DNA from: Cyanidioschyzon merolae | Taxonomy: Eukaryota | DNA length: 64,000 bases | Reading direction: 5' to 3' (one strand) | Assembly (NCBI GenBank): GCA_000091205.1 | Contig: AP006499.2 | In this document: piece after piece, positions 7,602 through 49,600 of the stretch | How the letters are laid out: the number at the start of each line of letters is the position of its first letter | Position numbering within the stretch: position 1 is the stretch's first letter | The notes under the pieces: generated by a model | Database searches by the model: none | What the model saw: only the letters and a program-made list of their open reading frames with translations | What the model was told of the DNA's origin: nothing | Program-made: the position numbers and the translations under genes

Positions 7602-8832
7602 GTCTCACAAGGCCTCGAGCGCAGTGCGCTCTCGAAGTTTCCCAAGCGATGTAGTGCAGCTTCCTCCTCAGAAGCTTCGAAGCGCGCACGGCATCAAAAC
7701 ACACGCGCCACTGGCCCCCGGAAGAGCTGCAACGATTGTCCAGCCGCCTCCGTCCAGCTCTCCCAAAGTCGCCTCACGTTCCGAAGCTGCCAGGCTTGGC
7801 AAAGATACGAGAGGCACCTTTGCGACGAGAGTTCCGCGTTACCCTGTCTCGTCACAAGATGAATCAGTTGTTCCCTACTTGCACTCACGCCTCACACACG
7901 GCCTCGAAAGAACACCAATAAGCACCGCAACTAGAGCGCTTCCTATGCACGCATACTCTTCGTGGAGCGCGGAAGCGTGTCTCCGGTGCACGCATACGTT
8001 CCCGCGACGACACGCATCGCCCCGCCGCAGAGACACGTATGCATTCCAGGTAGAAGGTGTCAGACAAAGCGCGCCGCCGTCCACTGTGCGCGAATTTTTC
8101 GCGCGCTTTTTCGCTGTCGCCTCCAGACACGATTTTGAGTTTGGCACAGGGATCGGGCGATTGCGTGCCCGGGGTGTTGCGACGCGCGAGTTCTCAGTGG
8201 ATAGTGCGATATCCCGCATGGTCATGATGGCCGGCACACCGGCACCGGTGTAGCTCGGTTCGATCAAACAACTGATCTTTCGATAAATAAGACGACAAGC
8301 GAATCAACAGTAGGGTCATTCGTGCTGCTGTCTAGCGTAAGCGAAATACCCCGGGGAATGCCTTATTAGAGAGCGCTGGTGCAAGCGCACCGGACGGTCC
8401 ATGAATGCGAGCATCGCGAAAAAGAGATCTCGTTGCTGAGACCGCGAGCACAACCACACGCGTGCTGCTTACATACGTTCTCTGGGATTCTTCCGAGCGA
8501 CCTGCCTCTTCTGTGCAGAGCCATTTGATACTGTCCGCAGCATTACTGAAGGCGCTAATACCATGCTTCAGAAGCACAGCTTCCCGCCGAGATGCAGAGC
8601 GTTCATCCTGGAATGGTCGCCGGCTTCCCGGTGTAACGTTACTGGGTCGATAATTCAGAAAACAAACATATCCAGCGTGACGCCGGCGACAGCAGCACAG
8701 GAGGCGAGGAGAACATGTTGCAATCCGCACGGGAAACGCTCGTCTGTTGCTGTGTCTCTTTTTGGCACATTTCTTTGGGAATTCACCAACTGCATGACGA
8801 GAAAGGCGACGACTTTCTCGATACACCCATGC

Positions 8833-10196
8833 CAAAATAAAATGGAATGGGTCCAGTTAGCTAACTCGGTCACCAAAACGCTAGCATTCCGCTCTCCTTC
8901 TATCTATTTTCATCAACATCAGCCTGTGCGGGCTTTGAGTGCGACTGATTCCTGTCCCTCTCGCTGATCACTGGGCTTACAAATGCCGATGTCTGCATTC
9001 GCGTCAGCCGCGCTGCAGCAGTCGAGATACGGTGATGCCAGCGTTCGAGTCCGGCGTTCGCTGTTTCTGGTTCATCCGCAAGCACTGCATCCACAAGCGG
9101 TCGTTACGATCCGTGCGTTGCTGGCCATTTGGAGCCCACGTCTCTGGAGCTTCGGTGCGGCTGCCGCAGCGATGACGCCTGACTGCGTTCAGGTGCTTCC
9201 ATGGGTCTGACGCCACACACGTGCTTCTTCGAGCACCGCCTCGTGGCACGTGAACGCGCGCGTCATCGCTCCTTGCATGCCACTGACCGCTGCAAAAGGC
9301 TGCCTTGGATGCCGTACCCAAAGAGCACGGACTTGTTCTGGGCGATCGCCTTGGCGAGCACGCTATCGACTGCGAATGCAAGCGACCGCTGCCCCGTTCG
9401 ACAGAGGATTTGCGGTAAGCGACGTCGTTCGGGATCAGGTGTGTACCGGGGGCGGAATCCAGACTGGAGCGCACGCCCAGCAATGTCGATCGGTCTGCGC
9501 TCCCTTCTTCGTGCACAGCGGTGACACGCGCTCTGCTGGAAGCGATCGCTACGATGCCTGACGTCCGACTCCAGGGCCCTTTGTAATGCAAACAAGGGAG
9601 ACGAGCACTTGTGGGCGTATTTTCGCATGAGAGGTATGTTGCTGACGATGTTGCATGGTGTGTTGTCGATGCCCACAGAGGGAGAGGGCAGGATTTGTCT
9701 CTGGAGTGAAATCGATGATTTGACGTAACGCGTTCAGAGAGGGTTCGGTATGCGCTTGAGACGAAGCCTCACAGGCTCGCCGTCGACTTCTCCTTCACTC
9801 GCGGAGGCGGCGGCCCGAATCGCCCCGCCCGCGAGTCGCCTCGCAACGGACGGATCGGGAGCTTGGAGAACGCGCGATCGCAGGATGCTGTTCGTACGGG
9901 AAGCGGAAGAGCAGAGGCTCGCACGCGTACAGCGGGTAACGAAAGCGGATACTGGACAAACCATTCTGGATTGCGTCGCGAATGGTCTTGCTTCTAGTCA
10001 CGTAACGAATTCCTGCTATGAAAGTGGTAGGAACTACTCCGAGGGTTATCACCGAAAATCCTAAAAGTGCATGCAAATCCCTGAGCCCCAATCGCTGCAC
10101 GTGGAATGTCGATGCTATGCTTCTGAATAAAAAACTCGGTGAAAATCACGAGGCAGGAACAGAGCAAACAATTCAGTGTTCCATTTTATAATCTAA
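8833..10196. repeat. Left copy of a 1.36 kb near-identical inverted repeat (GC-rich, no convincing coding)
   Basis: Reverse complement of 17278-18632. The six-frame ORFs are mirrored with only a few substitutions (9795..10100- equals 17373..17678+ except TTFIAG/TAFIAG and LLFRFPY/LLFCFPY). Boundaries were read from where the flanks diverge. Confidence 0.85.
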
Positions 10197-10602
10197 AAGA
10201 GGTTAAGGAAAGTAGCACCAATTGACAGGCAGTCATCGCAGCTGGGATGCTGCACCAGCCGCTACGAAGAGCGCAGCGAGCATGTCTTTGTCCTGCATTG
10301 ACGACAAGTTCTGTTAGAGTCCGGGACGCAGCAGCAGCAACAGCAGCAGTTCTGCAAAAGCGTGCAGTGTCCTTGACGATGAGCTCGCTGCGCTCACAAA
10401 ACGCAGCTCGCGGACACTAGCAGGTGTGAGAAGGTCGATCCTGTGAACCCGCTAGCGACTTCGAGCGCCTCGGTCGTTGCAGCAGCCGCAGAGGCAACCG
10501 TTATTGACCCTTTGGGACCAGAGTGACCCGAGTTTGTTTCTTCTGGTGCAAGTTGCAGCCTAGACGGAGTGGAAACGCGAAAGGATTTCTTCTTTTGGCG
10601 AG

Positions 10603-11457
10603 ATGAGTGCAGCGCCGCCCTATGTGCGTGCAAGTGGGCGTAGAACCAGTGACTCTGTTGTGGACGCCAGCAGAGCAGACACAGCTTCAACAGTGAGCGC
10701 CAACCGTCGTTTGCAGACGCTCCTCGATCACTGGATTAGACGGGGCTGTGTCACCGAGGTAAGTGGCCCGCGAGGTGTCGGAAAAACTCACCTTGCGCTG
10801 GCATGTGCATGTCGCGCCATCCGAGACAACGCTGAGGTTATCATTCTGGATACAGAAGGTGGTATGACTTCGGACCGGCTCCAGCGCATAGAGCCTTCTG
10901 TAGCGTCTCGAATGCACCGTATACAGTGCTTCCGTCCTAGCTCGATGACAGAAGTATTGGCGCTGGCTTACTGCATGGATGCAGGTGTAATCGATACAAG
11001 TCAGGTCGCTTTAGTTATTGTAGACACCCTCGCGTCGGTTGTGCGAAGCGAATTCGTGCCGGATCGATCACTGGCACGACTTGGTCTGCTCCTACAGCGA
11101 CTGGCGCATCAGACGAATGCTATCGTGCTGGTGCTGAACCATGTCAGCTTTCGCATTCTTGAAGCCGAAGGCCCACGTGAAGTTCCGTGTGTCGAGAGAA
11201 TATGGGCATCTCTCTGTACGGTGCGCATACAGCTGATAGGACGGGACCAGTACATTGTATGGAAAGGTCATCAGCTTGATCACGGGGGTGTTGTGTCCGA
11301 ACGCTCGCAAGGAGACGGCTCAGTCGTTGGCTATTCGCAACCGCACAGATCAGGGAACGATACGCAGCCTTTCGATGCATCTGGAGCTGAGAATCCGGCC
11401 TCGCAGCCAAGCGCTCAATCGGATACTTCTTGCAAGGAGCCTAGTGGATCCAATTAG
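10603..11457 (+). CDS. RecA/RAD51-fold ATPase, RAD51-paralog-like (XRCC2/RAD51D-like)
   Basis: Walker A-like VTEVSGPRGVGKTHLALACA. The segment VIILDTEGGMTSDRLQRI resembles RAD51 ...YIDTEGTFRPERL. Walker B-like hydrophobic stretch LALVIVDTLASVVRSEF. The family assignment is tentative. Confidence 0.5.
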   Translation: MSAAPPYVRASGRRTSDSVVDASRADTASTVSANRRLQTLLDHWIRRGCVTEVSGPRGVGKTHLALACACRAIRDNAEVIILDTEGGMTSDRLQRIEPSVASRMHRIQCFRPSSMTEVLALAYCMDAGVIDTSQVALVIVDTLASVVRSEFVPDRSLARLGLLLQRLAHQTNAIVLVLNHVSFRILEAEGPREVPCVERIWASLCTVRIQLIGRDQYIVWKGHQLDHGGVVSERSQGDGSVVGYSQPHRSGNDTQPFDASGAENPASQPSAQSDTSCKEPSGSN

Positions 11458-12812
11458 ACCAGAGTTGCGTCCGATAATAGGCATCGCATCCGTTGCGACA
11501 GCAACGACGTGTTCCGATCGGTTGCTGCATAGATAATAGAGCTTGTTCAGGATTCTTGCCCGGTTGTAATGTCCTTCTGGGGACGACCGGGCGTGCACCT
11601 TCGAGTTTGTCGCGAGCTGGGAAACTGCACTGTGCGATTGATTGCACTGCACGTACACCTCTCGGGATACACGAAAAGAATGTGAAAGCTTCGTATGGAG
11701 GCGCATTTGCGCAGAACCGAAAAGTGCGCTCCACCGTATTCGGTCAACGATGCGGGATGAATCCGTCTCATGATAGCTGGCGAAATCTTTCTGCCCCTTT
11801 TTAGCCGGGTGGTTGTTCAGCGAACACTTGTGTTTGCGTCGAAAAAGTGGGAGCGCGCATCCTTGCACGAGCGCTTTTGGGTATCGGATATGTGCATTTG
11901 CGCACCCGTGTCCGTATACGTATCTGTATCTGAATCTGGGGGCGCGCCTGGACCAGTGCCTGTGTACGTGACTGTAGATGCATCGATGCAAAAATGCATC
12001 TACATCTTTGCGCATTCGGATACCGGGACCTAGAAATGTGTGTGTATATATAGAGGAGCCCATCTAGGAGCCTCTGAATTCGTGCATAGTTTCATTCAAT
12101 GCCCCGTTCGTGCCCAGCGACATTGCAGTGCAATGGAGAAGCTTTTTCAAGGTGGCTATTTCTGGGACAATTCTGTCTTCAAATTCTGATTGGCATTCGC
12201 ATGCTTCCAGATCTTGTCGAAAATCGCTGCTAGAGTTTCGCACACCCCAAACTGTACATCAGATGCGCTCAGTATAGCCATTTTGAGAATCCTAATTGGC
12301 AATCGCGCTTGATGCACAGGGCCAAGGAACGAGATGGAGTCGACCACGCGAACGCCCCTTGCAAAGTAAAACCCTTCTGTGCGCTGATTGGACTCATTCA
12401 CGATCAGGAACAACAGATTCAAGGAAGGTTTCCGTGCTCGTGCACTGTATGTCCGGCAGTGTGTTGTCGTGCGGGATTGTTTGCTGTGACGTGAGAGACT
12501 CGCTCAATTCTAGTCCCGAACGCAAGGCCAATAGGGCCTGGCATGGCTCGCGTTCGTCGGCCACCATTGCACGCTTATCTGAGAGTATGATGGAAAACAT
12601 TTCACGCGATCGTGGCTTCATTCGTATGCGGAGTTCCGACCACTCATCTACGATATAGTTCTGCTCCAGCTAAAAGCGGCGGTGGTCCTGTGTCTCACAG
12701 GAAACCAAAATCCACTTGCATCCCTTTGTGCACGACAGGCGCCCATGTCACTGGAATACTTTGCTGTCCAGGTCGCTGCAGCCTTCGCCACAGCGCGTGG
12801 GGTTTTTTCGCT

Positions 12813-14978
12813 TCACGCGGCAGCAGCCTGACCTCTTTTGCGCGGGTCACTCGCTGCGTACATGATACCGTCTTGGACAGTGCCGCGCTGCACCGGCTCG
12901 TTTGAATGCAGAGCAAATAGCGGCAAACCAGCATGGGGTCGCACGACAGCCTGCACACAGCCAACCATTTCTGGTGCAATACTCTCATGGTCTTGGCTTC
13001 CCTCAATTTCGTGACCGACACGACGCATGTATTGGCACATCTGAGTCCAAATACCGCTATTCTTTTCCTGTGCAGATCGAACTCCTCCGAGCTCGCATTT
13101 TTGACCAACCGCTTCCATCCAGAGAACATTCGGTAGCAGCTGATGGTGTACGCGTGGCATAGAAATGGCCTCTACCAGGCCATCAGCAAAGTCGAGCACA
13201 TTGATCAGCACCTGCAGCGTCGATGAAATGATTCGGGGCCCACCGGATCCGCCAACAACAAGCACGGTACGTCCGTTGCGTACGACAATTGTAGGTGACA
13301 TCGAGGAAAGTGGTCGCTTTCCAGGCACGGGAAAATTTGGCTCTGAGGGTGATATATCGAAGGCATTCGGATGCCCGGCCACGGAAAAGTCGTCAATCTC
13401 GTTGTTGAAGACAATGCCTGTCGAGCGACTTCGAATCATGGAGCCAAATTCAGTATTGATGGTGGACGTGAGCGCGACAGCATTGCCTTGTGCGTCAAGA
13501 ACGCTCAAATGGGTAGTGCCGTGGTCATCGACTCCGCCGATAGTCGAATGAATACGCTCGGCGTCAAAGTAATAGTCCGCAGGATGCGTTTGCAGGGTAT
13601 CCAGAGTTTCGCGCAGACGCGCGGCTGCCGCTTTGTTCACCATGTAGTCGCTGACGTGAACTGCTGCTTCAGGCACAAAGTCCGGATCTCCTAATTGCGA
13701 ACGGCTCGCAAAAGCGTATTTCAGGGCTTCGGTCACAAGCTGCAGACTCTCATTGGAATGTCCACGAGATGGCATATTGTAGCCCTCGAGGATGTTCAGC
13801 GCCATAGCGATCGCCGGTCCACCGGAGCTCGGAAGTGAAGAACCGAGAATCTCAAAGCCCCTGTAGAAGCTTTGCAGAGGCTGTCTCCGTTTCGGTTGAT
13901 ATCCACTGATGTCCTCGGCAGTCATTAGTCCACCTGCCTCCTGAATTTCTTTCGCCAGAGTCGAGGCCGAGTGATTGTACAAGTAATCAGCGCCGTGAAG
14001 CGCAATCTGCGTCAGGAGTTCTGCCAGCGCCGTCTGGACGAGCGTCTCGTTTTCCGCCAAGACACGAGAACCGCTGGGGTCACAGAACACTTCACATAAA
14101 GTAGGCGATTTGAGAATTGTTGGAGCATTCTGAGCCAGGCGATATGCGAGCATGGTTCCAACCGTCGCGTTACGAGCGAGAGGGATCACTGGCAACACAA
14201 CATCTCTCCAAGAAAGCTTCCCGTATAGGGCATGCATGAGCTCGAGACCTCGAAGTTCACCAGGAACCGCGATGGAGAGTCCGCCATGGCGCGTACTTTC
14301 CGGGCCCCGTTCGCGTAGAAGCTGGTGCGTTAGGTTCATTGGCGCCGTCTCCCGTGCGTCAATGAAGTCCGTTGACCCGTTCTGCAGCCGAACGAGCGCG
14401 AAGCACCCACCTCCGATTCCAGATGCAAATGGCGACAGAACTCCTTGGCAAAGGGCAGAGGTCACAGCGGCGTCCACGGCGTTTCCGCCCAGTTCCGATA
14501 GAACCTGCAGTCCTAGTTTCGAACAGACGGGGTTGTCCGCTGCAACCGCTCCATATCGCTCACCACGTGCCAAGATGCTTTTGCCAAACGGAGCAAAGTT
14601 TTCTACAAGTGACGCTGCAGTGGTGTCGTCGCCACGAGCGCCTTTGTGGGCATCAGAACCTCCAGCGACAGGGCCTCCCTTTGAATCGTGAGTCGAGTCA
14701 GCCGCCTGAGATGGCGTACTCGTTCCAGCACGCTCATCACTTGGTGGCAAAAAGATCGGGATGCTCAAAACTGCCGCGGCGAACAGTACAAGAAAGAAGA
14801 AGAGTAGCGCATACTTTCGCAGCTCGCGAGGGTCACGCTCGCCTTCCCACCACGAAGGCAACTCGAGCCCTGAGCGAACCAAGAAAGGCTCGCGTTGCTG
14901 TTGGGACTCAACATCCAGAAAAGTCGTCCGTCGATCAATCTGTTTGCGTGGACTCAGAACAGTGATCTGGTCGGTCAT
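12813..14978 (-). CDS. gamma-glutamyltranspeptidase (Ntn hydrolase), type II membrane-anchored
   Basis: ...TSTINTEFGSMIRSRSTGIVFNNEIDDFS... has the catalytic Thr and GGT signature. ...GGSGGPRIISSTLQVLINVL... is also GGT-typical. N-terminal hydrophobic anchor ALLFFFLVLFAAAVLSIPIFL. The start is taken at the Met of MTDQITV, because the longer track ORF (to 15068) runs into an interspersed repeat. Confidence 0.85.
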   Translation of the reverse strand: MTDQITVLSPRKQIDRRTTFLDVESQQQREPFLVRSGLELPSWWEGERDPRELRKYALLFFFLVLFAAAVLSIPIFLPPSDERAGTSTPSQAADSTHDSKGGPVAGGSDAHKGARGDDTTAASLVENFAPFGKSILARGERYGAVAADNPVCSKLGLQVLSELGGNAVDAAVTSALCQGVLSPFASGIGGGCFALVRLQNGSTDFIDARETAPMNLTHQLLRERGPESTRHGGLSIAVPGELRGLELMHALYGKLSWRDVVLPVIPLARNATVGTMLAYRLAQNAPTILKSPTLCEVFCDPSGSRVLAENETLVQTALAELLTQIALHGADYLYNHSASTLAKEIQEAGGLMTAEDISGYQPKRRQPLQSFYRGFEILGSSLPSSGGPAIAMALNILEGYNMPSRGHSNESLQLVTEALKYAFASRSQLGDPDFVPEAAVHVSDYMVNKAAAARLRETLDTLQTHPADYYFDAERIHSTIGGVDDHGTTHLSVLDAQGNAVALTSTINTEFGSMIRSRSTGIVFNNEIDDFSVAGHPNAFDISPSEPNFPVPGKRPLSSMSPTIVVRNGRTVLVVGGSGGPRIISSTLQVLINVLDFADGLVEAISMPRVHHQLLPNVLWMEAVGQKCELGGVRSAQEKNSGIWTQMCQYMRRVGHEIEGSQDHESIAPEMVGCVQAVVRPHAGLPLFALHSNEPVQRGTVQDGIMYAASDPRKRGQAAAA

Positions 14979-15039
14979 CGGGTGTTGCCAGTCCACGCTG
15001 AGCAGGTTCAGAGGCGTGGCGAAGGTTGCAGCGACCGGG

Positions 15040-15330
15040 CAAGAAACCCCTCGATGAGCCCAGCACACGCGTAGCGTTCGCAGCGGCTCACGCCTGAGCG
15101 GATGAGGTACGCATCTCCTTCGTCATTGGGAGTTTCGTTAGGTTTCTTGTTCGTTAAAAAATACTCACGACACGATTCATGTGCATGTATATACGTTTAT
15201 TCCTGATGCTTGTAATGCAACTTTATCGGACTATGGATGGTGAACTGTTTTGGATTGCACTGCTATCGGGCGTTATGGGCTGGCACTGATGACACTACAT
15301 GTTGTTGCCGTACTGTCGTCGTTGTCTAGG
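15040..15330. repeat. Interspersed repeat R2, copy 1 (about 290 bp, non-coding)
   Basis: Aligns with 31020-31300: shared acgcgtagcgttc.cagcg...ggatgaggtacgcatc..., ...acgtttattcctgatgcttgtaatgca..., ...gggctggcactgatgacactacatgttgttgccgtactgtcgtcgttg... Confidence 0.7.
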
Positions 15331-15692
15331 TCATGGTGCCTGCTACTTTCCCCGGATCCGGCGATCTTGGCAGAGATGCAGCGCGCTTTCAGCGTCGATA
15401 TGGACCACGACGTGCGAGCCTTGTACATCACATGGCAGGATCGAGGCACCCGACAAAAGCAGATACTGCATTTTGGTCTACGCTATTGGTGTACTGGCGA
15501 GAGCGTACCCGGAAGGTCGTGGCGCAATCGCCAAACCGTGAAGTGATTCTTACTCCCGCCAGTCATATGCGCCCGGATATTCGTTGGCTACCTGCTGATT
15601 TTTCACATCAAGTAGGAATACTTTGGAACGTACGGATTTTCTCTCTTTCCGTTTATACGTCCAGTGAGGCGGAACAGGTTCACAGCGATGGA

Positions 15693-15769
15693 AGGTAAAA
15701 ATATCTGTCCAATCGCAGACGCCTCCCAACGTCGTTTGACCGGTCGCCTGGTATCGGCTTCAGATTTTC
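15693..15769 (-). ncRNA. Conserved 3' module downstream of the Fanzor-like stop; candidate omega-RNA scaffold remnant (copy A)
   Basis: The reverse complement reads ...gttgggaggcgtctgcgattggacagatattttt. This aligns with the equivalent position in copies B, D, E, G and H. Confidence 0.25.
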
Positions 15770-15995
15770 CTCACATACTGCGCGAAGAGGCTGCCCCATA
15801 AATAAAGTAAGCTCGCCTCAGATCCCCGAGTCTCCTCTTCGGCACCGCACATCGTCTCATATTTGTGGCGGCGTTGATGTCACAGTTGACAAACTCCTTG
15901 CTTTTATTGCATCCGGGCGAAATAACCAAAGCAAGTATTTCTAGAGCTCATGTCCTCTGCGCCACGACAGTCTCGTCATCGTCCCGCTGGGTAAA
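15770..15995 (-). pseudogene. TnpB/Fanzor-like RuvC-III C-terminal remnant (copy A)
   Basis: The minus-strand translation reads ...VFTQRDDDETVVAQRT*... and FVNCDINAATNMRRCAVPKRRLGDLRRAYF. This is the D-x-NAA-x-N motif plus conserved tail; frameshifts and stops are present. Confidence 0.55.
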
Positions 15996-16513
15996 CACCT
16001 TTTCTCAACTTTTCCCCTTCTTCTGCTTCTTCGTCACTTGCTCCTCTTCTCACGATGGTATCGGAGAAGAGAATTTTATTGGTTTTCGTCCAACCCGGTG
16101 ATGATGGCCCTCCGAGATCCTCGAATTATACGCCCATACCATCGCATTTTATTTTTTATTTTGGAACATGAACACCCTTCTTCATGTCCTGAGGTGAAAC
16201 CCCTTCACGGAGGGAGAAGGACTTGCGGAAGACAGACGGAATGTGCCCCGGTGAGTCAAAGTTGTGAAAGCTTGATCAGTTCGCCCAGCGTAGCGTTCAT
16301 TACGTTTCACGGTACGACACATTCCTTCGATGTGTTGAATCACGTAGAGGAAGCATTAATGAAAAGCAGCTCTATCCGGATAGAATCCGCAAAAACTCGA
16401 ACCCAAAGGGCATCATGAAATACCAACTTGTATAGTTGAAGGACGTTACCAGATGTCAGGGAAAAGTCTTCAATGATTCGGCTAATTTGTACATGGTGTT
16501 GTATGAGACTTCT

Positions 16514-16987
16514 CTACGAGCGACGCTGAGGCCGCCATACGAATCCCTTGTAGCTAGACCAGATGATATCCTCGTTCTCTTCGAGTTCGGTCGTATATAA
16601 CATAATCCCTCCCCGCGAACACCCATATATGCGCCAACGGTATCGCCTGAAGGAACCATCATCAACTGAAAAAAGAAACCGACGTCCCTGTGCCTCATAC
16701 CGGTCGTGAGGTACCAGGAACACTTTCTTTGCGATTTCGTTGGAAGATGGACATGCTGTAACTAGTACCTTTTTGGGACTGTATCCCAGTGTTTTCAGGA
16801 CAGGATGAAAAAGCTGGTGAGGTGCAGAGACGCCCGTAGTGGCTACTGTTGTCGCTTCTACCTTCCGGAAGGTGAACGACGGTTCGCTGTCTGCCATTGA
16901 CCGCCAGCATTCTATAAAACTATCGGTTTCTGGCGTAAAGCGCACATACATCTTTCTTTCCACGTTCCTCAACCATCTGAGTGTCAC
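16514..16987 (-). pseudogene. Tc1/mariner-like (DDE_3) transposase remnant (copy A)
   Basis: ...VLKTLGYSPKKVLVTACPSSNEIAKKVFLVPHDRYEAQGRRFLFSVDDGSFRRYRWRIYGCSRGG... follows the Tc1 pattern L..LGY.RKK..P.LS..H...R..FA..H..W....W..V.FSDE..F. The catalytic DE is degenerate, reading DDGSF. Confidence 0.55.
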
Positions 16988-17277
16988 GGTGTGACTGATC
17001 TGAAGGAGAACTGCAGTCTTCCTTGCACTGTTCAGTACAAAGTATACCCTACAGACAATTCATCGACGATCTATAGAGCACACTGCAGAGTTATTTCGAT
17101 CTGCTGCTCTACACCGCATCCGCCGAGAAATAAAATTGAGTTGGAAGACTAATGTAGCCCTTGGGCCAGCGTCCGGCGGATACCGCTGCTTCTTGTACAC
17201 GCTCTTCGGGATGCATGCGGCAGGTACGCATCAACTCTGCATGACATGCATCCGCTTTGAGATCCAAAACCCCCTAT

Positions 17278-18632
17278 TAGATTATAAAGTGGAACACTGA
17301 ATTGTTTGCTCTGTTCCTGCCTCGTGATTTTCACCGAGTTTTTTATTCAGAAGCATAGCATCGACATTCCACGTGCAGCGATTGGGGCTCAGGGATTTGC
17401 ATGCACTTTTAGGATTTTCGGTGATAACCCTCGGAGTAGTTCCTACCGCTTTCATAGCAGGAATTCGTTACGTGACTAGAAGCAAGACCATTCGCGACGC
17501 AATCCAGAATGGTTTGTCCAGTATCCGCTTTCGTTACCCGCTGTACGCGTGCGAGCCTCTGCTCTTCTGCTTCCCTTACGAACAGCATCCTGCAATCGCG
17601 CGTTCTCCAAGCTCCCGATCCGTCCGTTGCGAGGCGACTCGCGGGCGGGGCGATTCGGGCCGCCGCCTCCGCGAGTGAAGGAGAAGTCGACGGCGAGCCT
17701 GTGAGGCTTCGTCTCAAGCGCATACCGAACCCTCTCTGAACGCGTTACGTCAAATCATCGATTTCACTCCAGAGACAAATCCTGCCCTCTCCCTCTGTGG
17801 GCATCGACAACACACCATGCAACATCGTCAGCAACATACCTCTCATGCGAAAATACGCCCACAAGTGCTCGTCTCCCTTGTTTGCATTACAAAGGGCCCT
17901 GGAGTCGGACGTCAGGCATCGTAGCGATCGCTTCCAGCAGAGCGCGTGTCACCGCTGTGCACGAAGAAGGGAGCGCAGACCGATCGACATTGCTGGGCGT
18001 GCGCTCCAGTCTGGATTCCGCCCCCGGTACATACCTGATCCCGAACGACGTCGCTTACCGCAAATCCTCTGTCGAACGGGGCAGCGGTCGCTTGCATTCG
18101 CAGTCGATAGCGTGCTCGCCAAGGCGATCGCCCAGAACAAGTCCGTGCTCTTTGGGTACGGCATCCAAGGCAGCCTTTTGCAGCGGTCAGTGGCATGCAA
18201 GGAGCGATGACGCGCGCGTTCACGTGCCACGAGGCGGTGCTCGAAGGAGCACGTGTGTGGCGTCAGACCCATGGAAGCACCTGAACGCAGTCAGGCGTCA
18301 TCGCTGCGGCAGCCGCACCGAAGCTCCAGAGACGTGGGCTCCAAATGGCCAGCAACGCACGGATCGTAACGACCGCTTGTGGATGCAGTGCTTGCGGATG
18401 AACCAGAAACAGCGAACGCCGGACTCGAACGCTGGCATCACCGTATCTCGACTGCTGCAGCGCGGCTGACGCGAATGCAGACATCGGCATTTGTAAGCCC
18501 AGTGATCAGCGAGAGGGACAGGAATCAGTCGCACTCAAAGCCCGCACAGGCTGATGTTGATGAAAATAGATAGAAGGAGAGCGGAATGCTAGCGTTTTTG
18601 CGACCGAGTTAGCTAACTGGACCCATTCCATT
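17278..18632. repeat. Right copy of the 1.36 kb inverted repeat
   Basis: Reverse complement of 8833-10196 at more than 99% identity by eye. It is also homologous, though diverged, to the direct-repeat units at 36485 and 42863, in the same orientation as those. Confidence 0.85.
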
Positions 18633-19100
18633 CTATTCTGGAATGAATATAAGACGCGCAACGCATTCGCAGAAGACGTACTGCGATGTCTAGCGCCGAA
18701 AATTGTCCAGAGTTCTAGGTGCTTCGCCAAATGCTCCTACAATGCATATCGAAGACTGCCGATTTGTGAGCATTAGGCCTCCTGTGCCATAGAGTGCGCC
18801 TCTCTTCCTCAAAGCAGGTACAGGTATCTCTTCCTCAAGAAATTCCGATCAGAATCACTTAAGAAGAATGCTATCCACATTGCGGCTCACCTGACCTTTT
18901 AAAAACTTCACACAAGAGTGCGCGTCGGTGACCCACATCAGACGCGTACCGATAACTGCAGCCGCTCCTCATGGACCTTGTCCAGGAACGCGTCTCTGCA
19001 GTAAATCAATCGCCTCTGCCGCGTAGCCACGCAGGATCGTTTATCGCGAATTTTTGCTCCTAGGCAGCACTACTCACTCTGTCCAGCAATCACGCGAGTG

Positions 19101-23560: not shown

Positions 23561-26179
23561 ACTTTGCTCTCTGCACTAGGACGAGTCCGACTGCAATCAC
23601 CATCATGTCCTACCACATTGAGAATGTCCAGAGACCGCATGACGCAGCGGTGACGGTCTTCGCTGTGGCATGTTTGCGCAAAAGCAGCATCCATACCGAT
23701 GCATCCGCACAAAGCGGGAACTCGTTGCCAAACACTCACCGTTCCGGCGGGTATAAGTGCCGTGAATGGTACCAGGCCCGAGGCTTCCCCGACTCCAGCG
23801 CTGTGCAATGACCTTCAAACAAAAACGCTCAAGCCGACTCCTGAGGCAAATTGCCACCCCGAACGAAATGCAGGGAACTCGCGTCCACGCAAAGGATCGC
23901 GTCCTATTTCACAGGATACTTGCAAGCGACACGCGTGTCTCTTAAACATAATGAAAACATCCACAGAGACCAACGATCGGGTTGCCTGGCTGGGGAGCAC
24001 GCACCTTACCATGCACACCCGCGCGAATGCATATTTTATTCCTCATCGACAATGAAACGTGCAGAGGTGCCGTGCTCGGTGCTTGAGTGAAATCAAATAG
24101 CAGAACTGCCCGGCACTTGCCATGCCGCGATCTCACAGGCACTGAACAGACGCCGGGTAAAGCGGCTCCCTTGGGTCGAGGCGTCAATTGTCCGTATCCG
24201 TCGAAAATGGAAGGCTGACATGTTCGCTGGGCTCCCGGCTATCGATGTTTTCCGACATTGTTTCCATGTACAGCATCGAGTATCGAACTGCAGCAATATG
24301 GGCGTACGAATTCATACGTGGTTTAAGATTCGTGGTTGTCTTTATCGGAATGGCTTTTACGAATCTATGCTGCGGAAATTTGTTTTGTTTATTTGTTTCA
24401 TTGACAAAACGTTTACATGGGCCAGCGTTCTCCAATTGTGCGCTCTTTCTGCTCCCACATTTTTTTGTGTTTTTTCCAGTACACGGTGAAGTATCCATCA
24501 AACGCCCTACCTCCAAGTTACATGTCCCATACTTCTTCTCGGATATTCAGGTCGTTTCATACGTCCTATCGTGTGTGCCTGGTGCCTGCCGAAAGCGACC
24601 GCAATGGAGTCTTTAGCGCCGATGCGTTCGCTGCACGGAGACAGAATGGCGTTGCCGTACCACACAGAGGGCATCGGCTCGAGATTCGTTCTGGTAAGGG
24701 AATCGGGAAGATTCGCGACGCACTCGAAAAAGCGTTTGAAAAAATAGATACCATCATCCAATTGAGTTTTGCATGCCCCCACTCTTCTCCTTTCGTTAAG
24801 CGTGGCGTGCTCAAATTATGCCTTCTAAATGTTTTCCATCCTTCTGTTTCACCACAACTCGTAAGAGCAGGAATTCGCACCGCTATATAGAAAAGGAAAA
24901 GAACTCGACAGTTTCAGTTGATGAGCGTTTTGTGGAAGCACCTGCCGAAAGCTATTTTGACTTTCCTTTATCAAATAATCGAGACAATTCGAATAACGAA
25001 TCCTCCTACTTTGCGGCCAGCGACTAGACGGTGTTCGACAAGATCACGCTACCTCTCACAGGGTTTGCGCGCAGAGGCACCAGTCTCGTCTGTTTAGATG
25101 TAACAGGGTCGTAGACTGCGGCTCGAGACATCGCAGCAGTTGCCCCATTGGGGAGCGCGTCACCGCTTCACACGACGAGAGCGTAGACCAATCGAATCAT
25201 TTCGATGTGCTATGCAGTCAAGGTTCCCCTTCCTGCACTGGTTTCATCAGGAGCAACATCGCGCTCCACAAAAAGCCTCTTTTATTCGCAAAATAGCAGA
25301 GGGCAGAATATAGGTCATCTTGCCTACTTTAACTTTTTCTCCGTTGTTCGACGCTATTCAGAGCTTGTTCCGGACCATGGCAAACATATTCATGGATTTG
25401 AATTACTTTTTCGGCAACCCGGATCGCCCTCGACACGACCAATACTCAGTGCTTTTGGCGCCGAAACTGCTGCCACTGGGCTCCTCCGCACCTGTTTGGC
25501 GCAATTTGTTCCCGTTCACGGATCGGGGACTTCCAAATAACCATGAACGATAGCGATGAACAAGATGTACAGAATGAATATGTAATGCATTCTTATCAGT
25601 AGAGGCACATGGCCGATGCGCACCTGGTACACCGAGGTAAGAACTTTCTCAGAGCAACAATGAAATCCCGGAGTATTTCGCTTAGAGGCGCATACCATCC
25701 ATACAGAACGTCGCCCATGTCGGACGCAACGCCTTCCTCCACGAAGCGCGTCGCATGGGCATCTTCTCGAACGAGGAGCTGTCTTCATCGCTACTCTACG
25801 GCACTGCGGTCGTGACGGCATATCTCGGACCACACTAGCTTATGCCGTGACATCGAGCCCGAAGAGAAGAGCGGGAACTCCATCGCCGCATTCTGAAGCA
25901 ACGCGATTGCCTCAAGCTCAAGCGCATGCACAGCTTGTGCGGCGTAGACCTTGGAGTCCTTCACCGCAATTGTGTTCCACCTCCGGGTACGTGTCATCAA
26001 GCGCTCTTTAGCGGTCTATATCAGACTTGCTCAGAGTGCGTTCATTTGAAGAAATAAAAAATCTAGGGGACAGGTATCGACATGAAAGTTGGAGATATTG
26101 CAGGGGATGTCGTCGCCGGCTGCCTGTAGAAAACGAAAAAAAAAATCCGCTTCTCGTCAGCTATCTAGCGAAGAAGGGC

Positions 26180-30100: not shown

Positions 30101-30159
30101 TATGGAAACCCATACGCAGACGCCGCGCAGCATTTTTGACCGGCCTCCTGCCACCGATA
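30101..30159 (-). ncRNA. Candidate omega-RNA scaffold remnant (copy H)
   Basis: Contains the conserved ...aaaaa.gctg.g.ggcgtctg... segment 3' of the RuvC-III remnant. Confidence 0.2.
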
Positions 30160-36443: not shown

Positions 36444-36484
36444 AAAAGTCGTGGAATGTTGTTCGTTATACTGGAAAGAATACT

Positions 36485-37747
36485 CGTAGTCAAACCATGA
36501 GGGCTCACCAACGCATGGGTACTTTTAACAACATCAAGCGTTGTTTTGGGACGGCCTCTTCCACTCCTTGCCGCTGGATTTCGTTACCTCACCGCCACCA
36601 AGATGAGTCGTGACGCCCGCTACAAAGCGCTCCTAAAATAACCGATACCACTATGCAGCGCATTCATAAACCACTGCGCGCTTCTCCTTTTCTTACGAAC
36701 AGCACGCTCAAATACCCCATTCATCTGGCTCTCCGTCTAGCGGTTCCATGGCAGCTCGTGGGCGCACCAGATCGCGCCCCTATATCGCGACGACGAACAC
36801 CCGACGTCGGCCGTTCACGAGTGTTCTCAGACACTCATGCCGAAAGCCCAACGGGGTTCTCACGTCAAATACTCCTCTCCGCTCTCATCGCACGCCCCCC
36901 TCTCTTCGCGCCCGTCGACGAGCCGGCACTCAACAGCGACACCGTATGTCTCTCCAGCTGCAGGCTCGCTACGGCTCCCGCGTCTCCCGTTTCCATGGGA
37001 AAGGGGCCTTGGACGCGGGCGCGCGCCGTCGCAGCGGCCGCCTCCAGCAGAGTTTGCGTCACCGCTCTGCACAGCGGGAGCGTAGACGGATCGAACCAGC
37101 TGGGCTGGATATCTCCAGCGCGGATCTCCCTCTTGGTGCCCCGCCTCATCGTGGTCAGCATTGCGTTGCACGGATTCTCCCGCGGACTGGACAGCGTGCG
37201 CGTGCGCATGCGCCCGCCCAGAATACGCGCCGTGCGGATCGCCCCGAGCGAGCCCGGGGTCTGTCGGTACCGCACGAGACGCCGAGACGGAACGAGGGCG
37301 TCGAGGCGACCCTTCTGCATCCGCCAACGACATGTATCGGGCGACGAGGGAGGCCCTCGGTGGATGAGCTTTGTCGGACATGTTGTCACACCTTACCACA
37401 GCCGATCATGGCAGCTACGTTGTGCGTCTCGAGGCTGTACACAGCGAAGATGGCAATGGCAAGCAAAGCATATATCGTGACGACCGCCTCTGGATGAACT
37501 GTTTCAAGAACACCTGGTGGCAGCGAAATCGGGACTTGAACACTGCCATCAGCATCCTTCAACAGTCGACAACGGACTCCGAGGGAGCGGAGCGTCCAGC
37601 ACGCTGACTGGCGGACATAAGAAAGGAAAACGGAGCATTTGCAGAAAGAGTCTGCGAGGGCTGGTGTGCATGACAGTACGATGAAATCCAAACCTGTGCG
37701 AGTACGCCCGTGTCAGGATGCCTGTTCCATTTCATCCCGACATGCGT
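36485..37747 (+). repeat. Left copy of a 1.27 kb direct repeat (same GC-rich repeat family as the inverted repeat at 8833 and 17278, diverged)
   Basis: Near-identical to 42863-44147. The ORF pair 36653..37480 and 43030..43878 is identical except for a 21-nt indel (...GGPRWMSF... versus ...GGPHAPWSGPRWRSF...). It starts cgtagtcaaaccatg and ends ...catcccgacatgcgtg. Blocks such as gtcaccgct.tgcac..gggagcg.agac.gatcga......ctgggc are shared with the inverted-repeat unit. Confidence 0.85.
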
Positions 37748-38066
37748 GAACGTACATGCACTGAACCCGTTACGTAGCGGCGACGTCGTATGAGTGATTG
37801 CCGTTTGCAATCACGCGCCGATCGCGAGACGGCCGCGCGTCACAGCATAGGGTGCCAGATTTCAGGGGCGTCTGCTGCGGAGCCGTATCCCACGGCCTGC
37901 CTGCAGGCTCGGACACGTCCCAGATTGGCAACTGATCCCGGACACGTGGTGCGATCTGGACGCGTTTCACATGGACAGCAGCTGGAGCGCTCGCGCGTCG
38001 ATGTGGAACACCCGGCGACAAGAGCCAGCCTGAAATTCACACCCGGCTTTAGAACTCGCTGTACTT

Positions 38067-42368: not shown

Positions 42369-42862
42369 AAGATGAGGTGCTCGGGCCCCAGTCCGTCCAA
42401 AAAGCTTTCAAGCAGGAACGTATGCAGCACAAGCGGTACGACGAAGCAGCCTGCCTTTCGATCTTGAGCGCTGATGCGTACCGTTCGGCGAAAACTCGCG
42501 CCCGCCACGGGATCGGCAGAGGCGCAGTGTGCACCGAACACTCGCGTTCGCGCCAAGCTTGCATGCGGCGTGCGGATGTCAGCGCATCGCCTTCTGAGGC
42601 GAAGTACGACACGCGTATTCGGTTCTCTTCAGCACCTGGACCGGTTTCAGCGCCGCGGATCAAACGCAATCAGGATCGAAAGTCACAGAAAAGGCCTCGA
42701 GGGCCCGTATGGACCATGAAATGTCCGAACCTAAGGCACGATAACTGACGTGAACGCCAGAGCCCGACACAGCAGGAAGAAAAAATCCAGCTTTGAGCTA
42801 CTCCTTCTGATCCTGCATTTCCATTTTTCTCGAAATGTTTTAGATGAGCAGTGCCGAGGTTC

Positions 42863-44147
42863 GTAGTCAAACCATGTGGGCTCACCAACGCATGGGTACT
42901 TTTAACAACATCAAGCGTTGTTTTGGGACGGCCTCTTCCACTCCTTGCCGCTGGATTTCGTTACCTCACCGCCACCAAGATGAGTCGTGACGCCCGCTAC
43001 AAAGCGCTCCTAAAATAACCGATACCACTATGCAGCGCATTCATAAACCACTGCGCGCTTCTCCTTTTCTTACGAACAGCACGCTCAAATACCCCATTCA
43101 TCTGGCTCTCCGTCTAGCGGTTCCATGGCAGCTCGTGGGCGCACCAGATCGCGCCCCTATATCGCGACGACGAACACCCGACGTCGGCCGTTCACGAGTG
43201 TTCTCAGACACTCATGCCGAAAGCCCAACGGGGTTCTCACGTCAAATACTCCTCTCCGCTCTCATCGCACGCCCCCCTCTCTTCGCGCCCGTCGACGAGC
43301 CGGCACTCAACAGCGACACCGTATGTCTCTCCAGCTGCAGGCTCGCTACGGCTCCCGCGTCTCCCGTTTCCATGGGAAAGGGGCCTTGGACGCGGGCGCG
43401 CGCCGTCGCAGCGGCCGCCTCCAGCAGAGTTTGCGTCACCGCTCTGCACAGCGGGAGCGTAGACGGATCGAACCAGCTGGGCTGGATATCTCCAGCGCGG
43501 ATCTCCCTCTTGGTGCCCCGCCTCATCGTGGTCAGCATTGCGTTGCACGGATTCTCCCGCGGACTGGACAGCGTGCGCGTGCGCATGCGCCCGCCCAGAA
43601 TACGCGCCGTGCGGATCGCCCCGAGCGAGCCCGGGGTCTGTCGGTACCGCACGAGACGCCGAGACGGAACGAGGGCGTCGAGGCGACCCTTCTGCATCCG
43701 CCAACGACATGTATCGGGCGACGAGGGAGGCCCTCACGCGCCATGGAGCGGCCCTCGGTGGAGGAGCTTTGTCGGACATGTTGTCACACCTTACCACAGC
43801 CGATCATGGCAGCTACGTTGTGCGTCTCGAGGCTGTACACAGCGAAGATGGCAATGGCAAGCAAAGCATATATCGTGACGACCGCCTCTGGATGAAATGT
43901 TTCAAGAACACCTGGTGGCAGCGAAATCGGGACTTGAACACTGCCATCAGCATCCTTCAACAGTCGACAACGGACTCCGAGGGAGCGGAGCGTCCAGCAC
44001 GCTGACTGGCGGACATAAGAAAGGAAAACGGAGCATTTGCAGAAAGAGTCTGCGAGGGCTGGTGTGCATGACAGTACGATGAAATCCAAACCTGTGCGAG
44101 TACGCCCGTGTCAGGATGCCTGTTCCATTTCATCCCGACATGCGTGT
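42863..44147 (+). repeat. Right copy of the 1.27 kb direct repeat
   Basis: See 36485-37747. The spacing between the two copies is 6378 bp. Confidence 0.85.
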
Positions 44148-44209
44148 TGAACGCAGCAGCAGATTCGTGCCCCATGTGCAGCGCATGATGGAGCCCTCGC
44201 CTCGTGCTC

Positions 44210-46622: not shown

Positions 46623-49600
46623 GGTTGCGGTCGCTGAGAGGCAGAAGCTTATAATAGCGATGGTTCATTTGCGCCGATCATGAATACATCACGTACAAGT
46701 GCCGTTTTGTCCAGTATTCCCTGGATCATTCCCGAAGGCTGTAACGCAGGACACGTGGCTGCACCGCGGCATCTCGTTCCGGAACGTGCGTAGACGGACG
46801 CCGCGGCCCCTGGGTGTCCGATCATCCGGTGGCGTTCGGCGATGCACCGATGCTGCGGAAACCACGAGTTGATCAGCGAGCGGCTCGAATGCCGAGGTGC
46901 CTCGTCAACGCGCGACGCCAACATCCCCCAAAATACGATATTTCGCGATCGCGACCTGTGGAAACGCCGTTCATGCAGGGGGTTGTCGGCGATGCCGCGC
47001 CAGGCGCAGGCGCACGTGTGGCGCTGCTCAACCAGCCCGAGTCTTTGCGTAGCCAAGGCAAAACATGAAACATGAAAATCACGTTGGGGGCGCTCGACCC
47101 TGAGTCTGGATTTCTGAGCAGCGGATGATACCAGGGCGTGCGCCACTACATCCATGTCAGAATAAAATTGAAGAGGTCCACTTAGCCGACATGGGTGCAA
47201 ACATCAGAATCATTTCAGAGTAAAACAGAATAGGTTCATCGCGCAAGCTTGGATCCGCACTCGCTATGGTTACGGCTCTTCCTAATGGCATCAACGCGTG
47301 CCTTTAGAGGCTTTTTCTATGACAGCTTCCCTTTACGCTCTTGTATCTCGGGCTCTATACAGGCCGACCTCCGCTTTCCGTCGAGCTCTGTTGCCAGCAG
47401 TCGGAGGATATTTATGGCAACATATTCGTTTGGATTCCGCCGTTTCCGGCTGCAGCAGACGCATTTCACGCACAGAGTGAAGATGAGATCTACGTTTCTC
47501 TTGCCATTTTCATACTCTTTGCACAAGGCCTCGATACGGTATTCGTAACCTTCAGAATTGCCACTGTTAACGTGTTTCAGTGTGTCCAACACAACTTCTC
47601 CTTCGAGGGCTAGCCTATGACGTATGAACGCTTACTTCATCGCTCGGTGCATGCCCTTGACAGGTACATAAGGTTCACCGCCCCGCTCCGATGTTCTCCT
47701 CGGTTTTCGCGCCCGGTACAGTTCCTTACGATCGCGGACCTCTTGTGAGCGATTCTCGCGGTGAGGGCACTGCACGCTGCTCGTGCAAGCCCAAACTGTT
47801 GTGTTTCAAACATGGATTGTGGAACACGATATTGTCCATGATCAAACAAGTATCGAAAGGAAAATTTAGGCTGGAGGGGAATTCGAGCTGTGTCGGTCCC
47901 TCTACGCTCGCTTCGTGCACAGCGGTGACGCATTCTCTAGTCAAAGCAATCACTGGAATGACTCAAGTCCGAGTCCAAGACGATTCTTCGTGTAAGAAGA
48001 ACAGACGGCAGCCGATGGGAGCGTATTCCTTGGTAGGTATCATGCTGCTGCCGTCGAATAGTGTTTCGTCGATGGACACCAAGAGCGGAGGGTTTGTCTT
48101 TCGAACGAAGTCCAGGATTTGATGTGAAAGGTTCGAAAAACAAGTGGCATGAGCTTTTTAACGACTGGTCAAGGGAGGCTGCCGCGTTTTTTCCTTCCTC
48201 AATCTAGCTACCCGAATTGATACCCCCACGAGTCGCGTTGAAAAGTGACCATCGAAACCTTGAAGAATGCGTTATTTGAGGACGTTACGCATATGGAAAT
48301 GAGCCGACTGGAGGGATGGACGTATGAATCGGATCATGACATCGGAATTTTACGAATACATTGTCGATGGGATCGCGAATCATTTCGATTCACGTGGCGG
48401 AACGAACTCAAGCGACAGAGAGTTTGAGGAGCCACTCCAAAATGACCGCCGAAAGTCCTGAAACTTCGAATGAATCCTCAAGTCCTTGCTGCCGCACTTC
48501 GAATGTCGAGGCTGTACTTCAGAAAACCATTCGAAAGAATCGAAATTATCTGAAGAGAGCGAGAAGCTGAGTGTTGCAATCAATTCTGAAACAGGTTTAG
48601 GAATCTTCTCTTCGGTGCTGCGAACGAATATTCCTTATCTGGAGCCTGTTGTGACGAGCGACTTTCCAGCATCCAAGAATGACGCTTGTCTGTTGGTGTC
48701 GCTGCAATAAATCTAGCTTTATGTTCATTCATCCTAGTTCACGAAGAAACATATAATTGAATTGAGGATCCTTTCCGATCAATGGGCCACAAGTTATCTT
48801 CGTGATGAATCTTTCTTCTAGAGGCCTCTGGCAAGATTCACCTGGAGACTCGGATATTTTGAACGGGAACGTCTCGCAATGACCATCTCAATTGCCACCA
48901 CTCAACTGCCCAACTCTTGCTCCGCGCCACGCTTTGGTGCCAGGACAGAATCCACGGCCCCCCGGGGCATACCATCAGATACTACCTATTCGACAACGCT
49001 TTCGTTGGGTAGGCTCGATGGATTAAAGCTGATGTTTTCGAGTGCGCGGAGCATGGCGGTTCGTAGGGCACAATCCTCATCTCAGCTGTGGATACAGCTA
49101 GCACCGCTTATACCATATATTTACGTGTACAATGTTCACCTCCGGAACAGCAGCATGATCGTTCCAGCGATACCTCGAGCGACGCATCTTCAGGGAGCAT
49201 TGCTTATGGCACTTGACGCGCCTCCGGGGTCACGCTGCACAGACAGGACGAATTTGCGATGTTTTTGCGGCAGTCAGCTCGAGACTTGCAATCATTTTTT
49301 GAATGATAGAGAGGAACTTCACCGTGAAATAGCGAGCTCGAGCTTACGACTATCCATCGCGTTGAAAGCCGATAGACATCTGATGTGCGAGCTCGTGCAC
49401 TAGATTCGCTGAAGGCAATTTTTTCCAGGAAACAATCATGTATCCAACCAGGATTGCTCTCGTGTGCGATGAGTTCATGCGACAGGGAAATGGATATCAC
49501 ACCGATCAGCGCACCTGAATTTTCCAAGAGCCTCAGAGGATTCTTCCCGTCGAAGCTGGCTGGTTGATGTCTCCACCGATATGAGTTTACCACCGGATGC

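Follow-up and report, generated by a model that had tools for sequence, protein, structure and literature searches.

Background

We report that a 64,000-nucleotide stretch of the nuclear genome of the red alga Cyanidioschyzon merolae (NCBI GenBank assembly GCA_000091205.1, contig AP006499.2; the whole stretch is hereafter called the window, and all positions refer to it) carries six copies, U1 to U6, of a family of interspersed repeats that we named U. Comparative analysis of these copies, of family members detected on two other chromosomes and of gene order in related Cyanidiales suggests that U is an old, internally deleted, non-autonomous Tc1/mariner-Fanzor transposon that has since decayed, a reading to which we give a probability of roughly 0.85. 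C. merolae is a model alga with what has been called the 'simplest' nuclear genome, yet the classification of its repeats is poor. Eight DNA-transposon relics and an unclassified repeat are listed in the genome paper (PMC1955436), a recent EDTA-based annotation lists Mutator, Helitron, CACTA and 'unknown' elements and no Tc1/mariner, and a literature search, with Repbase and Dfam outside its scope, returned no description of Tc1/mariner elements in this species.

The window and its U copies

The long open reading frames (ORFs) of the window are intronless eukaryotic housekeeping genes, e.g. those for DNA polymerase epsilon, gamma-glutamyltranspeptidase (GGT), Spo11, a class-II DAHP synthase and a phytoene/squalene synthase, and the gene products are identical to the C. 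merolae 10D proteins BAM82014-BAM82030. Two pairs of long repeats lie among these genes: an inverted repeat (8828-10202 and 17271-18645, 1375 nt, 99% complementary) and a direct repeat (36484-37748 and 42861-44146, 98% identical). An earlier reading made from the sequence only had united the two units as one family on the basis of shared blocks in the same order and orientation. Both strings that it quoted are present, at 17935-18010 and 37042-37119, and formal pairwise alignment bears out the relationship: the units are collinear in one orientation over 1018-1036 columns with 59% identity, far beyond compositional bias (E 2e-42 to 1.5e-47 by sensitive blastn with unit-sized sequences; E 1e-36 to 1e-44 in a self-comparison of the whole window). 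The U units are thus a real repeat family. Where four copies had been counted, an nhmmer profile made from those four units finds six in the window, the additional members being 47149-48597 (-) and 24164-25328 (+), and there are more on two other chromosomes. The copies and the parts of the queried unit, U2, including its terminal inverted repeats (TIRs) and helix-turn-helix (HTH) region, are as follows.

8824..10203, minus strand: U1, the inverted twin of U2, 1380 bp, with TA at 8822-8823 and 10204-10205.
17269..18649, plus strand: U2, the queried unit, a full-length decayed copy of 1381 bp (nhmmer family profile E=0), with TA at 18650-18651.
17269..17293, plus strand: degraded 5' TIR of U2, compared with the family TIR consensus.
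17351..18103, plus strand: U2 transposase remnant of IS630/Tc1-mariner type, HTH and DDE, with stops and frameshifts throughout.
18129..18609, plus strand: U2 remnant of a Fanzor1 (TnpB-like) C-terminus, with the YGxG region, an (E)xxTTxxCxxC...CxxC zinc ribbon and RuvC-III.
18625..18649, plus strand: degraded 3' TIR of U2.
24164..25328, plus strand: U3, a partial copy with its 5' part at 24164-24384 and further family sequence at 24681-25328 (nhmmer E 2e-25 and 2.5e-153).
36484..37748, plus strand: U4, the left direct-repeat copy, lacking the first ~100-130 nt of the family.
42768..44146, plus strand: U5, the right direct-repeat copy, full length, 1379 bp.
47149..48597, minus strand: U6, full length and a separate lineage, 1449 bp (nhmmer E 2.5e-142, E=0 with a later profile).

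U3 is interrupted by an insertion of ~300 bp (24385-24680) related to the CMe-1A 5' / TE-N2_CMe region, CMe-1A (a Fanzor1 element of the same genome) matching 24484-24691 with its nt 60-264, and the copy is 3'-truncated at about consensus position 876. U4 carries a 21-bp deletion that is specific to the reference strain and adjoins the 3' end of copy B of a second family, the Tc1/Fanzor copies A-D described below. U6 is flanked by TA at 47147-47148 and 48598-48599 and has a local duplication of ~60 bp in its 3' TIR region (47149-47215), where the motif 'TTTTAyTCTGAnATG' occurs twice. All copies are intergenic and next to genes, spaced 3-7 kb apart in both orientations and never in tandem. Their GC content varies between 0.48 and 0.60 with 0.54 for the window, so that the description of the unit as GC-rich holds for some copies only.

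Copies beyond the window and their decay

A block of 29-32 nt, GTCACCGCT-NNN-CAC-N5-8-GAGCGYAGA, is intact in six of the six window copies and absent from shuffled sequences. Scanning public metagenome contigs with this motif gave 28 loci, of which 12 correspond to the window region in strains that are 99.1-99.8% identical to it and three are chance matches, while 13 are new family loci. The latter represent seven further lineages, some of which were caught only beside a motif-bearing copy; one extra lineage came from a protein search with a stitched consensus protein, whose sole match was a further decayed copy (P0041). Because an intact motif was required, the copy number is a lower bound, and because the later copies were retrieved through the same motif its conservation is not independent evidence. 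The genes next to the new loci belong to the 839,707-bp and 1,621,617-bp chromosomes of C. merolae 10D, and U copies therefore lie on three chromosomes with unrelated flanks.

In full-length comparisons the 11 aligned lineages are 53-60% identical to each other in a star-like pattern, and identity to the leave-one-out consensus is 66-71% in every case. This points to one old burst that would have been followed by independent neutral decay. In agreement with the earlier suggestion that the unit is non-coding, tblastx of the inverted-repeat against the direct-repeat unit scatters across all six frames on both strands and made the copies by themselves of no help in finding a gene, neither period-3 nor clustering of mismatches was found between lineages, and indels between copies are not multiples of three. 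Hence, the copies decayed without coding constraint, and all are now dead and dispersed over at least three chromosomes. For the best conserved 30-nt block (17950-17979) the excess over chance among three lineages is borderline, and we claim no functional site there. No hits were obtained when the window was scanned for tRNAs and, at gathering thresholds, against Rfam. None of the unit ORFs that we looked up corresponds to an annotated protein of C. merolae 10D, and a protein database search with a 282-aa ORF of U5 returned only itself. We also note a 252-aa ORF (44130-44888, minus strand) that starts 17 bp inside the U5 3' end and is called a gene in metagenome annotations of related strains.

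No U copy was detected by blastn and profile searches in ~80 kb of syntenic DNA of three other Cyanidiales; the syntenic region of Cyanidiococcus yangmingshanensis, which belongs to the sister genus, has the same genes and no trace of U even by profile. We infer that the family spread after the split from Cyanidiococcus.

Ends and classification

The ends of U2 were set by aligning 5' ends with reverse-complemented 3' ends, which places the unit at 17269-18649; the limits of 17278-18632 proposed in the sequence-only reading are close and fall inside these ends. For seven lineages the same procedure gave a TIR consensus of ~25 bp, CAyCCATGyCAGAATAAAATGGAAC. The consensus ends match at 16 of 19 positions, a score reached by 3 of 300 shuffles, and TA or a one-base variant of it lies directly outside the ends in most copies. 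The combination of TIRs, TA flanks and a DDE_3 transposase (see below) places U in the IS630/Tc1/mariner superfamily.

Two candidate classes raised earlier were rejected. A Helitron would have 5'-TC...CTRR-3' ends with a 3' hairpin and would lack inverted repeats; it is excluded by the inverted-repeat ends 5'-CAyCC...GGrTG-3'. A satellite or tandem repeat is excluded by the lack of head-to-tail arrays and the distribution over three chromosomes.

Ancestral coding content

The ancestral sequence was approximated as the majority consensus of the 11 lineages (1509 columns). It has long protein-like frames on the plus strand only. Frame 0, from about consensus nt 130, encodes an HTH region followed by '...PPLFVAIDETAFDS..TGYAPRGSR..KGSWTRT.VIAAIASSG...GTCFIMDNIAFHKS', and the transposase part continues past VIAAIASSG to 'CFIMDNIAFHKS'. 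It matches Pfam DDE_3 with 43.6 bits (cut-off 28.6; E 3.5e-11) and the NCBIfam IS630 profile with E 3e-16 over profile positions 22-240 of 299, which is below the 100-bit equivalog cut-off; HTH_33 and HTH_Tnp_Tc3_2 match only weakly (E 0.02-0.05). Of the catalytic residues, the first two aspartates can be recognised and map, from consensus to U2, near 17806 (AIDET in the consensus) and near 18044 (MDNIAFH). The third catalytic residue, expected ~34 residues after the second aspartate, is missing: the alignments stop at 108 of 146 (DDE_3) and 240 of 299 (IS630), and Fanzor homology starts right after this point, as would be the case in a non-autonomous derivative formed by deletion.

At about nt 820-900 the frame changes, and the homologous sequence reads '..KKSVILGYGTGRGNGGGHRGKPSVPVKGMYRAMKQAF...VLDTWEHLTTVKCHRCEG...RLCMKC...NPDLNAAINILRLL', with '..SVILGYGTGRG..' before VLDTWEHLTTVKCHRCEG. 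A Fanzor1 profile made from ten C-termini of organisms other than C. merolae, with sequences taken from the supplement of Bao & Jurka 2013 (PMC3627910), matches a plus-strand frame of the U consensus with E 2e-12 (39.6 bits), with no minus-strand frame better than E 0.09. Moreover, aa 534-721 of the C. merolae CMe-1 Fanzor1 align to consensus nt 819-1364 (tblastn, E 7.8e-5), Pfam Cas12f1-like_TNB matches at the correct C-terminal position with E 1e-4 (22.8 bits against a cut-off of 26.3), and NCBIfam guided_TnpB with E 0.03 at the C-terminal end of the profile. The RNA-guided nucleases Fanzor1 and TnpB carry the C-terminal motif [TS][TS]-x-x-C4 zinc finger-x(5,50)-RD (PMC3627910). This motif and RuvC-III are present as TTVKCHRCEG...RLCMKC...NPDLNAAINIL, except that the arginine of 'RD' is a proline in the consensus, and the RuvC-III motif NPDLNAAINIL lies near 18420-18452 of U2. 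The retained tail corresponds to the last ~140-190 residues of Fanzor1; neither the RuvC-I aspartate nor the N-terminal REC/WED region is represented in U, and no copy is open. Neither the Fanzor-like tail nor the transposase part had a meaningful match in sequence searches of the PDB.

The open frames had been taken as typical of GC-rich non-coding DNA, a view that no longer suffices, as the consensus restores a transposase and a Fanzor1 C-terminus on the plus strand. The preference for a non-autonomous element over a host gene is supported.

Near-identical pairs

Comparison of U1 with U2 in the finished genome shows 18 differences. Only six fall in the 1309-bp interior; four are found within the first 21 bp and eight within the final 51 bp, six of the latter within the final 17 bp. 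Old edges around a homogenised interior are predicted by continuing gene conversion between long-standing copies, and would not be shown by a young duplicate. In a strain 99.4% identical to the window (L007), five direct-repeat sites differ between the strains and are shared by both copies, and no site inside the direct repeat has an orthologous, copy-specific pattern in this comparison. For the inverted pair a shorter strain comparison gave one strain-shared site and one swapped site. We consider it somewhat more probable that interior gene conversion has kept U1/U2 and U4/U5 98-99% alike than that the pairs are recent duplicates.

Young duplication, by local transposition or as a by-product of rearrangement (e.g. 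staggered breaks at an inversion border), is the less likely explanation, although several observations speak for it. The U1/U2 identity stops no more than 4 bp from the element ends, U4/U5 have sharp borders and only three single nucleotide polymorphisms and one indel, there are further near-identical pairs on two other chromosomes, and gene conversion could not start between copies at the family-average divergence. Tc1/mariner cut-and-paste transposons are known to hop locally. A young copy would, however, lack the gradient seen in U1/U2, whose termini are far more diverged than the interior and whose inverted repeats are badly degraded; U4 lacks its 5' end and is therefore not a complete transposition product, and the strain variants are common to both paralogues while differing between strains. 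Two points count against gene conversion: a metagenome assembler that collapses near-identical repeats could mimic the concerted pattern between strains, and U5 and U6 are 3 kb apart yet 58% identical, so that proximity alone does not guarantee homogenisation.

Twin copies in other lineages are 98.5-99.8% identical and occupy two or more sites of a given chromosome, and at L037/L040 three U pieces lie within 7 kb; twins and clustering are thus recurrent and not peculiar to the window. The near-identical twins elsewhere are at L019/L042 and L022/L026 (1,621,617-bp chromosome) and at L016, L036, L039 and L040 (839,707-bp chromosome). A separate observation concerns contig L021 (JGI24721J44947_10014578, positions 8483-9402), which follows the window through U2 and, 40 bp before the end of U2, passes into a different U-type 3' end and then into flanking sequence that the window lacks. 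Either another strain carries a recombinant of U copies or the contig is misassembled, and the junction was not used.

Inversions bracketed by repeats

Gene order was compared with that of Cyanidiococcus (L045), its sister lineage (L046, GGT 76% identical to that of Cyanidiococcus) and a more distant member of the Cyanidiales (L047, GGT 53% identical to that of C. merolae). The segment of interest in the window is the following.

10204..17268, no strand: block between U1 and U2 with a Rad51-like gene (10603-11457, plus strand), the GGT gene (12813-14978, minus strand) and Tc1/Fanzor copy A (identified with Pfam).

The order in L045, L046 and L047 is GGT(+), Rad51-like(-), WD40(-), ..., Fumble(+), RRM(-), small ORF(+), while in C. 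merolae it is U1, Rad51-like(+), GGT(-), copy A, U2, WD40(-). Since all three relatives share the opposite order, the Rad51-like/GGT inversion is derived in C. merolae, and U1 and U2 sit exactly at both borders of the block that is inverted only there. The intergenic spaces at these borders are 3.0 and 4.0 kb in C. merolae and 0.24-1.6 kb in the relatives. A second derived inversion comprises the small ORF and RRM genes (27867-28845) and lies between inverted A-D fragments (25955-26557 and 30070-30656, 63% identical). In addition, the TCTP/330-aa gene pair (45004-46622), which lies between U5(+) and U6(-), has the opposite orientation in Cyanidiococcus; the outgroup agrees with C. merolae in orientation and differs from it in gene order, so that either lineage may have rearranged. 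Recombination between inverted copies would be the simplest mechanism of the inversions, and the Rad51-like/GGT inversion most plausibly arose by recombination between U1 and U2. Among present-day strains no contig with the alternative orientation of the block was seen.

The neighbouring A-D family and CMe-1A

Copies of the second family were located at the following positions, with fragments near 26000, 30100 and 32000.

15672-17149: Tc1/Fanzor copy A.
35116-36483: Tc1/Fanzor copy B.
55067-56521: Tc1/Fanzor copy C.
62182-63556: Tc1/Fanzor copy D.

The A-D consensus encodes a DDE_3 transposase (29.1 bits) followed by two pieces of CMe-1A, nt 869-1012 and then nt 2809-3084, with 68-79% nucleotide identity to the CMe-1A consensus. 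These correspond to the first ~48 and the last ~90 residues of the Fanzor1 gene, and the two separated pieces constitute a clear signature of internal deletion in a transposase-plus-Fanzor composite. Judged from these sequences, CMe-1A, which was described without superfamily assignment (PMC3627910), may once have ridden in a mariner-type transposon.

The proximity of U to A-D noted in the sequence-only reading is genuine: ~120 bp separate the last homology to copy A from U2, and U4 directly adjoins copy B. A-D, described earlier as elements that the units abut, do not constitute a separate partner. U and A-D show collinear protein-level homology, 23% identity over 132 residues of the transposase (E 9e-9) and 42% over 43 residues of the tail (E 0.012) between the consensus proteins, and U is therefore better regarded as an older, more decayed element of the same architecture. 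There is no nucleotide similarity between U and A-D, and the pairwise identity within A-D (63-72%, against 53-60% for U) indicates that A-D are younger. We rejected the idea that U forms a composite with A and B, as the ends that these turn towards U2 and U4 are opposite ones, and no U copy lies beside C or D.

A near-full CMe-1A copy (32010-35107, minus strand; 83% identity over 3111 of 3169 bp) lies head-to-head with copy B. U has no blastn match to the 3169-bp CMe-1A consensus at E 1e-5. The 3' 309 nt of CMe-1A (nt 2861-3169; window ~32010-32320) are predicted to fold more stably than all 100 shuffles (z -2.44), which would fit a Fanzor guide-RNA region. The corresponding 292 nt at the 3' end of the U consensus gave z +0.14 against shuffles, a value in which consensus errors could hide structure.

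CMe-1A / TE-N2_CMe corresponds to the ~253 'WSV486-like' interspersed repeats of C. merolae, which were defined by translated similarity to WSV486 of white spot syndrome virus (WSSV) at E 1e-5 to 4e-2 (Nozaki et al. 2007, PMC1955436). Using WSV486 (SWv-1) as tblastn query against the window, we obtained matches at 32421-32672 (E 4.6e-5) and, weakly, at 63349-63393, the only significant one being the CMe-1A copy; neither a U copy nor the coding strand of the U consensus was detected, and U would therefore fall outside the 253 repeats.

Fragments matching the first ~260 nt of CMe-1A are present at 24385-24680 (where U3 is interrupted), 26571-26817 and 59886-60132. The 13 kb between the Fumble and NIF-phosphatase genes (23000-36500) are mostly transposon debris (U3, A-D fragments and CMe-1A), while the same interval in Cyanidiococcus spans 5.3 kb. 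Small repeat pairs within the debris are 15044-15322 / 31012-31293 and 30497-30786 / 34148-34436.

Discussion

Our data suggest the following origin for U. The progenitor would have been a mariner-type transposon with a transposase gene followed by a Fanzor1 gene, from which a deletion removed the segment between the end of the transposase gene and a late part of the Fanzor gene. The resulting ancestor, ~1.38 kb long with ~25-bp TIRs next to TA, would have carried one composite reading frame on the plus strand that joined ~240 transposase residues to the last ~140-190 Fanzor1 residues. This deleted element was presumably mobilised in trans and spread over several chromosomes after the Cyanidiococcus split; the copies then decayed, neighbouring pairs would have been homogenised, and the inverted pair would have recombined, flipping the block between them.

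Several observations weigh against this scenario. No autonomous progenitor with these ends, a transposase and a full Fanzor was seen, and the deletion step is thus a deduction. The transposase homology is found in the consensus only, with no open frame in any copy, and even the 11-sequence majority consensus still has stops and one frame change, no copy being intact. The Fanzor matches in curated libraries are sub-threshold, the strong score coming from our self-built profile. The TIRs of single copies are too degraded for significance, the TA flanks are indistinguishable from element sequence as no empty site was found, and the mechanism of the inversions is not readable from sequence.

Other origins have to be weighed against the same data. 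The ancestral element could have encoded a genuine fusion of a transposase DNA-binding and partial catalytic domain with a Fanzor RuvC/zinc-ribbon tail: one junction is common to all U lineages, and a transposase followed by a Fanzor tail, with equal order and strand, is found in both U and A-D, whose transposase parts share just 23% identity. We consider such a fusion unlikely, since the transposase homology ends before the third catalytic residue (profile 240/299), the Fanzor part lacks the RuvC-I aspartate and all N-terminal sequence, the two parts lie in different consensus frames, and the join in A-D consists of two separated CMe-1A Fanzor pieces, as expected from deletion. It is even less probable that U is a functional host sequence, be it a fast-evolving protein family or a family of long non-coding RNA genes under selection. 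Such a role would agree with the intergenic positions next to genes, with the block of 29-32 nt intact in all six window copies, and with the reported transcription of C. merolae interspersed repeats (PMC1955436). It is contradicted by the lack of a consistent frame and of a period-3 signal, by evenly spread mismatches, by a best conserved 30-nt window that hardly exceeds chance, by the absence of an Rfam family and of a 3' fold better than shuffles, by the lack of an annotated C. merolae 10D protein for any of the unit ORFs looked up, and by the absence of U at the syntenic loci of three related lineages. Finally, we see hardly any room for satellite-like DNA, for Helitrons or for mere segmental duplications that have no link to transposition; the two near-identical pairs within 5-7 kb of each other would suit such an origin, whereas the copies are not arranged in tandem, lie on three chromosomes with unrelated flanks, end in TIRs with TA outside instead of 5'-TC...CTRR-3', and contain a DDE_3 remnant. 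An internally deleted Tc1/mariner-Fanzor transposon remains our preferred reading.

As an addition to this reading, we mention a speculative idea that we regard as improbable, namely that U and A-D, two families deleted independently, each retain several hundred bases of the Fanzor 3' end as part of a cis-acting module, i.e. a guide-RNA gene plus a target-adjacent end. If so, Fanzor1 supplied in trans, e.g. from an intact CMe-1A, could protect or re-copy elements after excision, and homology-directed repair would drive the homogenisation of neighbours and the inversions that they bracket. The fold test of the U 3' region gave no support for it.

Dead transposons, gene conversion and inversions flanked by repeats are familiar phenomena, and none of these findings is surprising in kind; apart from the near-identical pair bracketing a flipped two-gene block, the U units are ordinary genomic debris. 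The main value lies in repeat classification in a model genome, where U can be assigned a class as well as an origin and an age (later than the Cyanidiococcus split) and A-D the same origin, and in markers of substrates for gene conversion and inversion. Engineering of the C. merolae genome routinely relies on homologous recombination, and the near-identical pairs are substrates for recombination.

The behaviour of U1 and U2 can be compared with that of human Y-chromosome palindromes and plastid inverted repeats, whose arms are kept identical by arm-to-arm gene conversion. The likeness lies in near-identical interiors, diverged edges and an invertible middle segment. U1 and U2, in contrast, are 1.4-kb copies of a dead transposon, neither the arms nor the inversion show any indication of function, and no flip polymorphism was seen.

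Within the same genome, A-D share with U the architecture, the likely origin by internal deletion and the location in transposon-rich stretches; they differ in that they keep a complete transposase and two Fanzor pieces of CMe-1A. The CMe-1A / TE-N2_CMe repeat has in common with U the protein homology in the Fanzor1 C-terminus and an old, decayed state, and differs in that CMe-1A has been reported without inverted repeats and without a transposase. The closest parallels outside C. merolae are the mariner elements PUl-1 and PUl-2 of Pythium ultimum and PGv-1 of Phaeocystis globosa virus, which carry a transposase and Fanzor1 and are associated with TA duplications (PMC3627910). U resembles these in having a transposase followed by Fanzor on one strand, TIRs (~24-33 bp in this group), TA flanks and a DDE transposase of the IS630/Tc1/mariner type, while it retains ~80% of the transposase and only the tail of Fanzor1, measures 1.38 kb against 3.6-4.4 kb, and is represented by dead copies only. 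A tblastn search of the U consensus with the PUl-1 transposase found nothing, which makes U a distant lineage. With U and A-D read in this way, C. merolae Fanzor1 would be tied to a Tc1/mariner vehicle, as it is in oomycetes and algal viruses.

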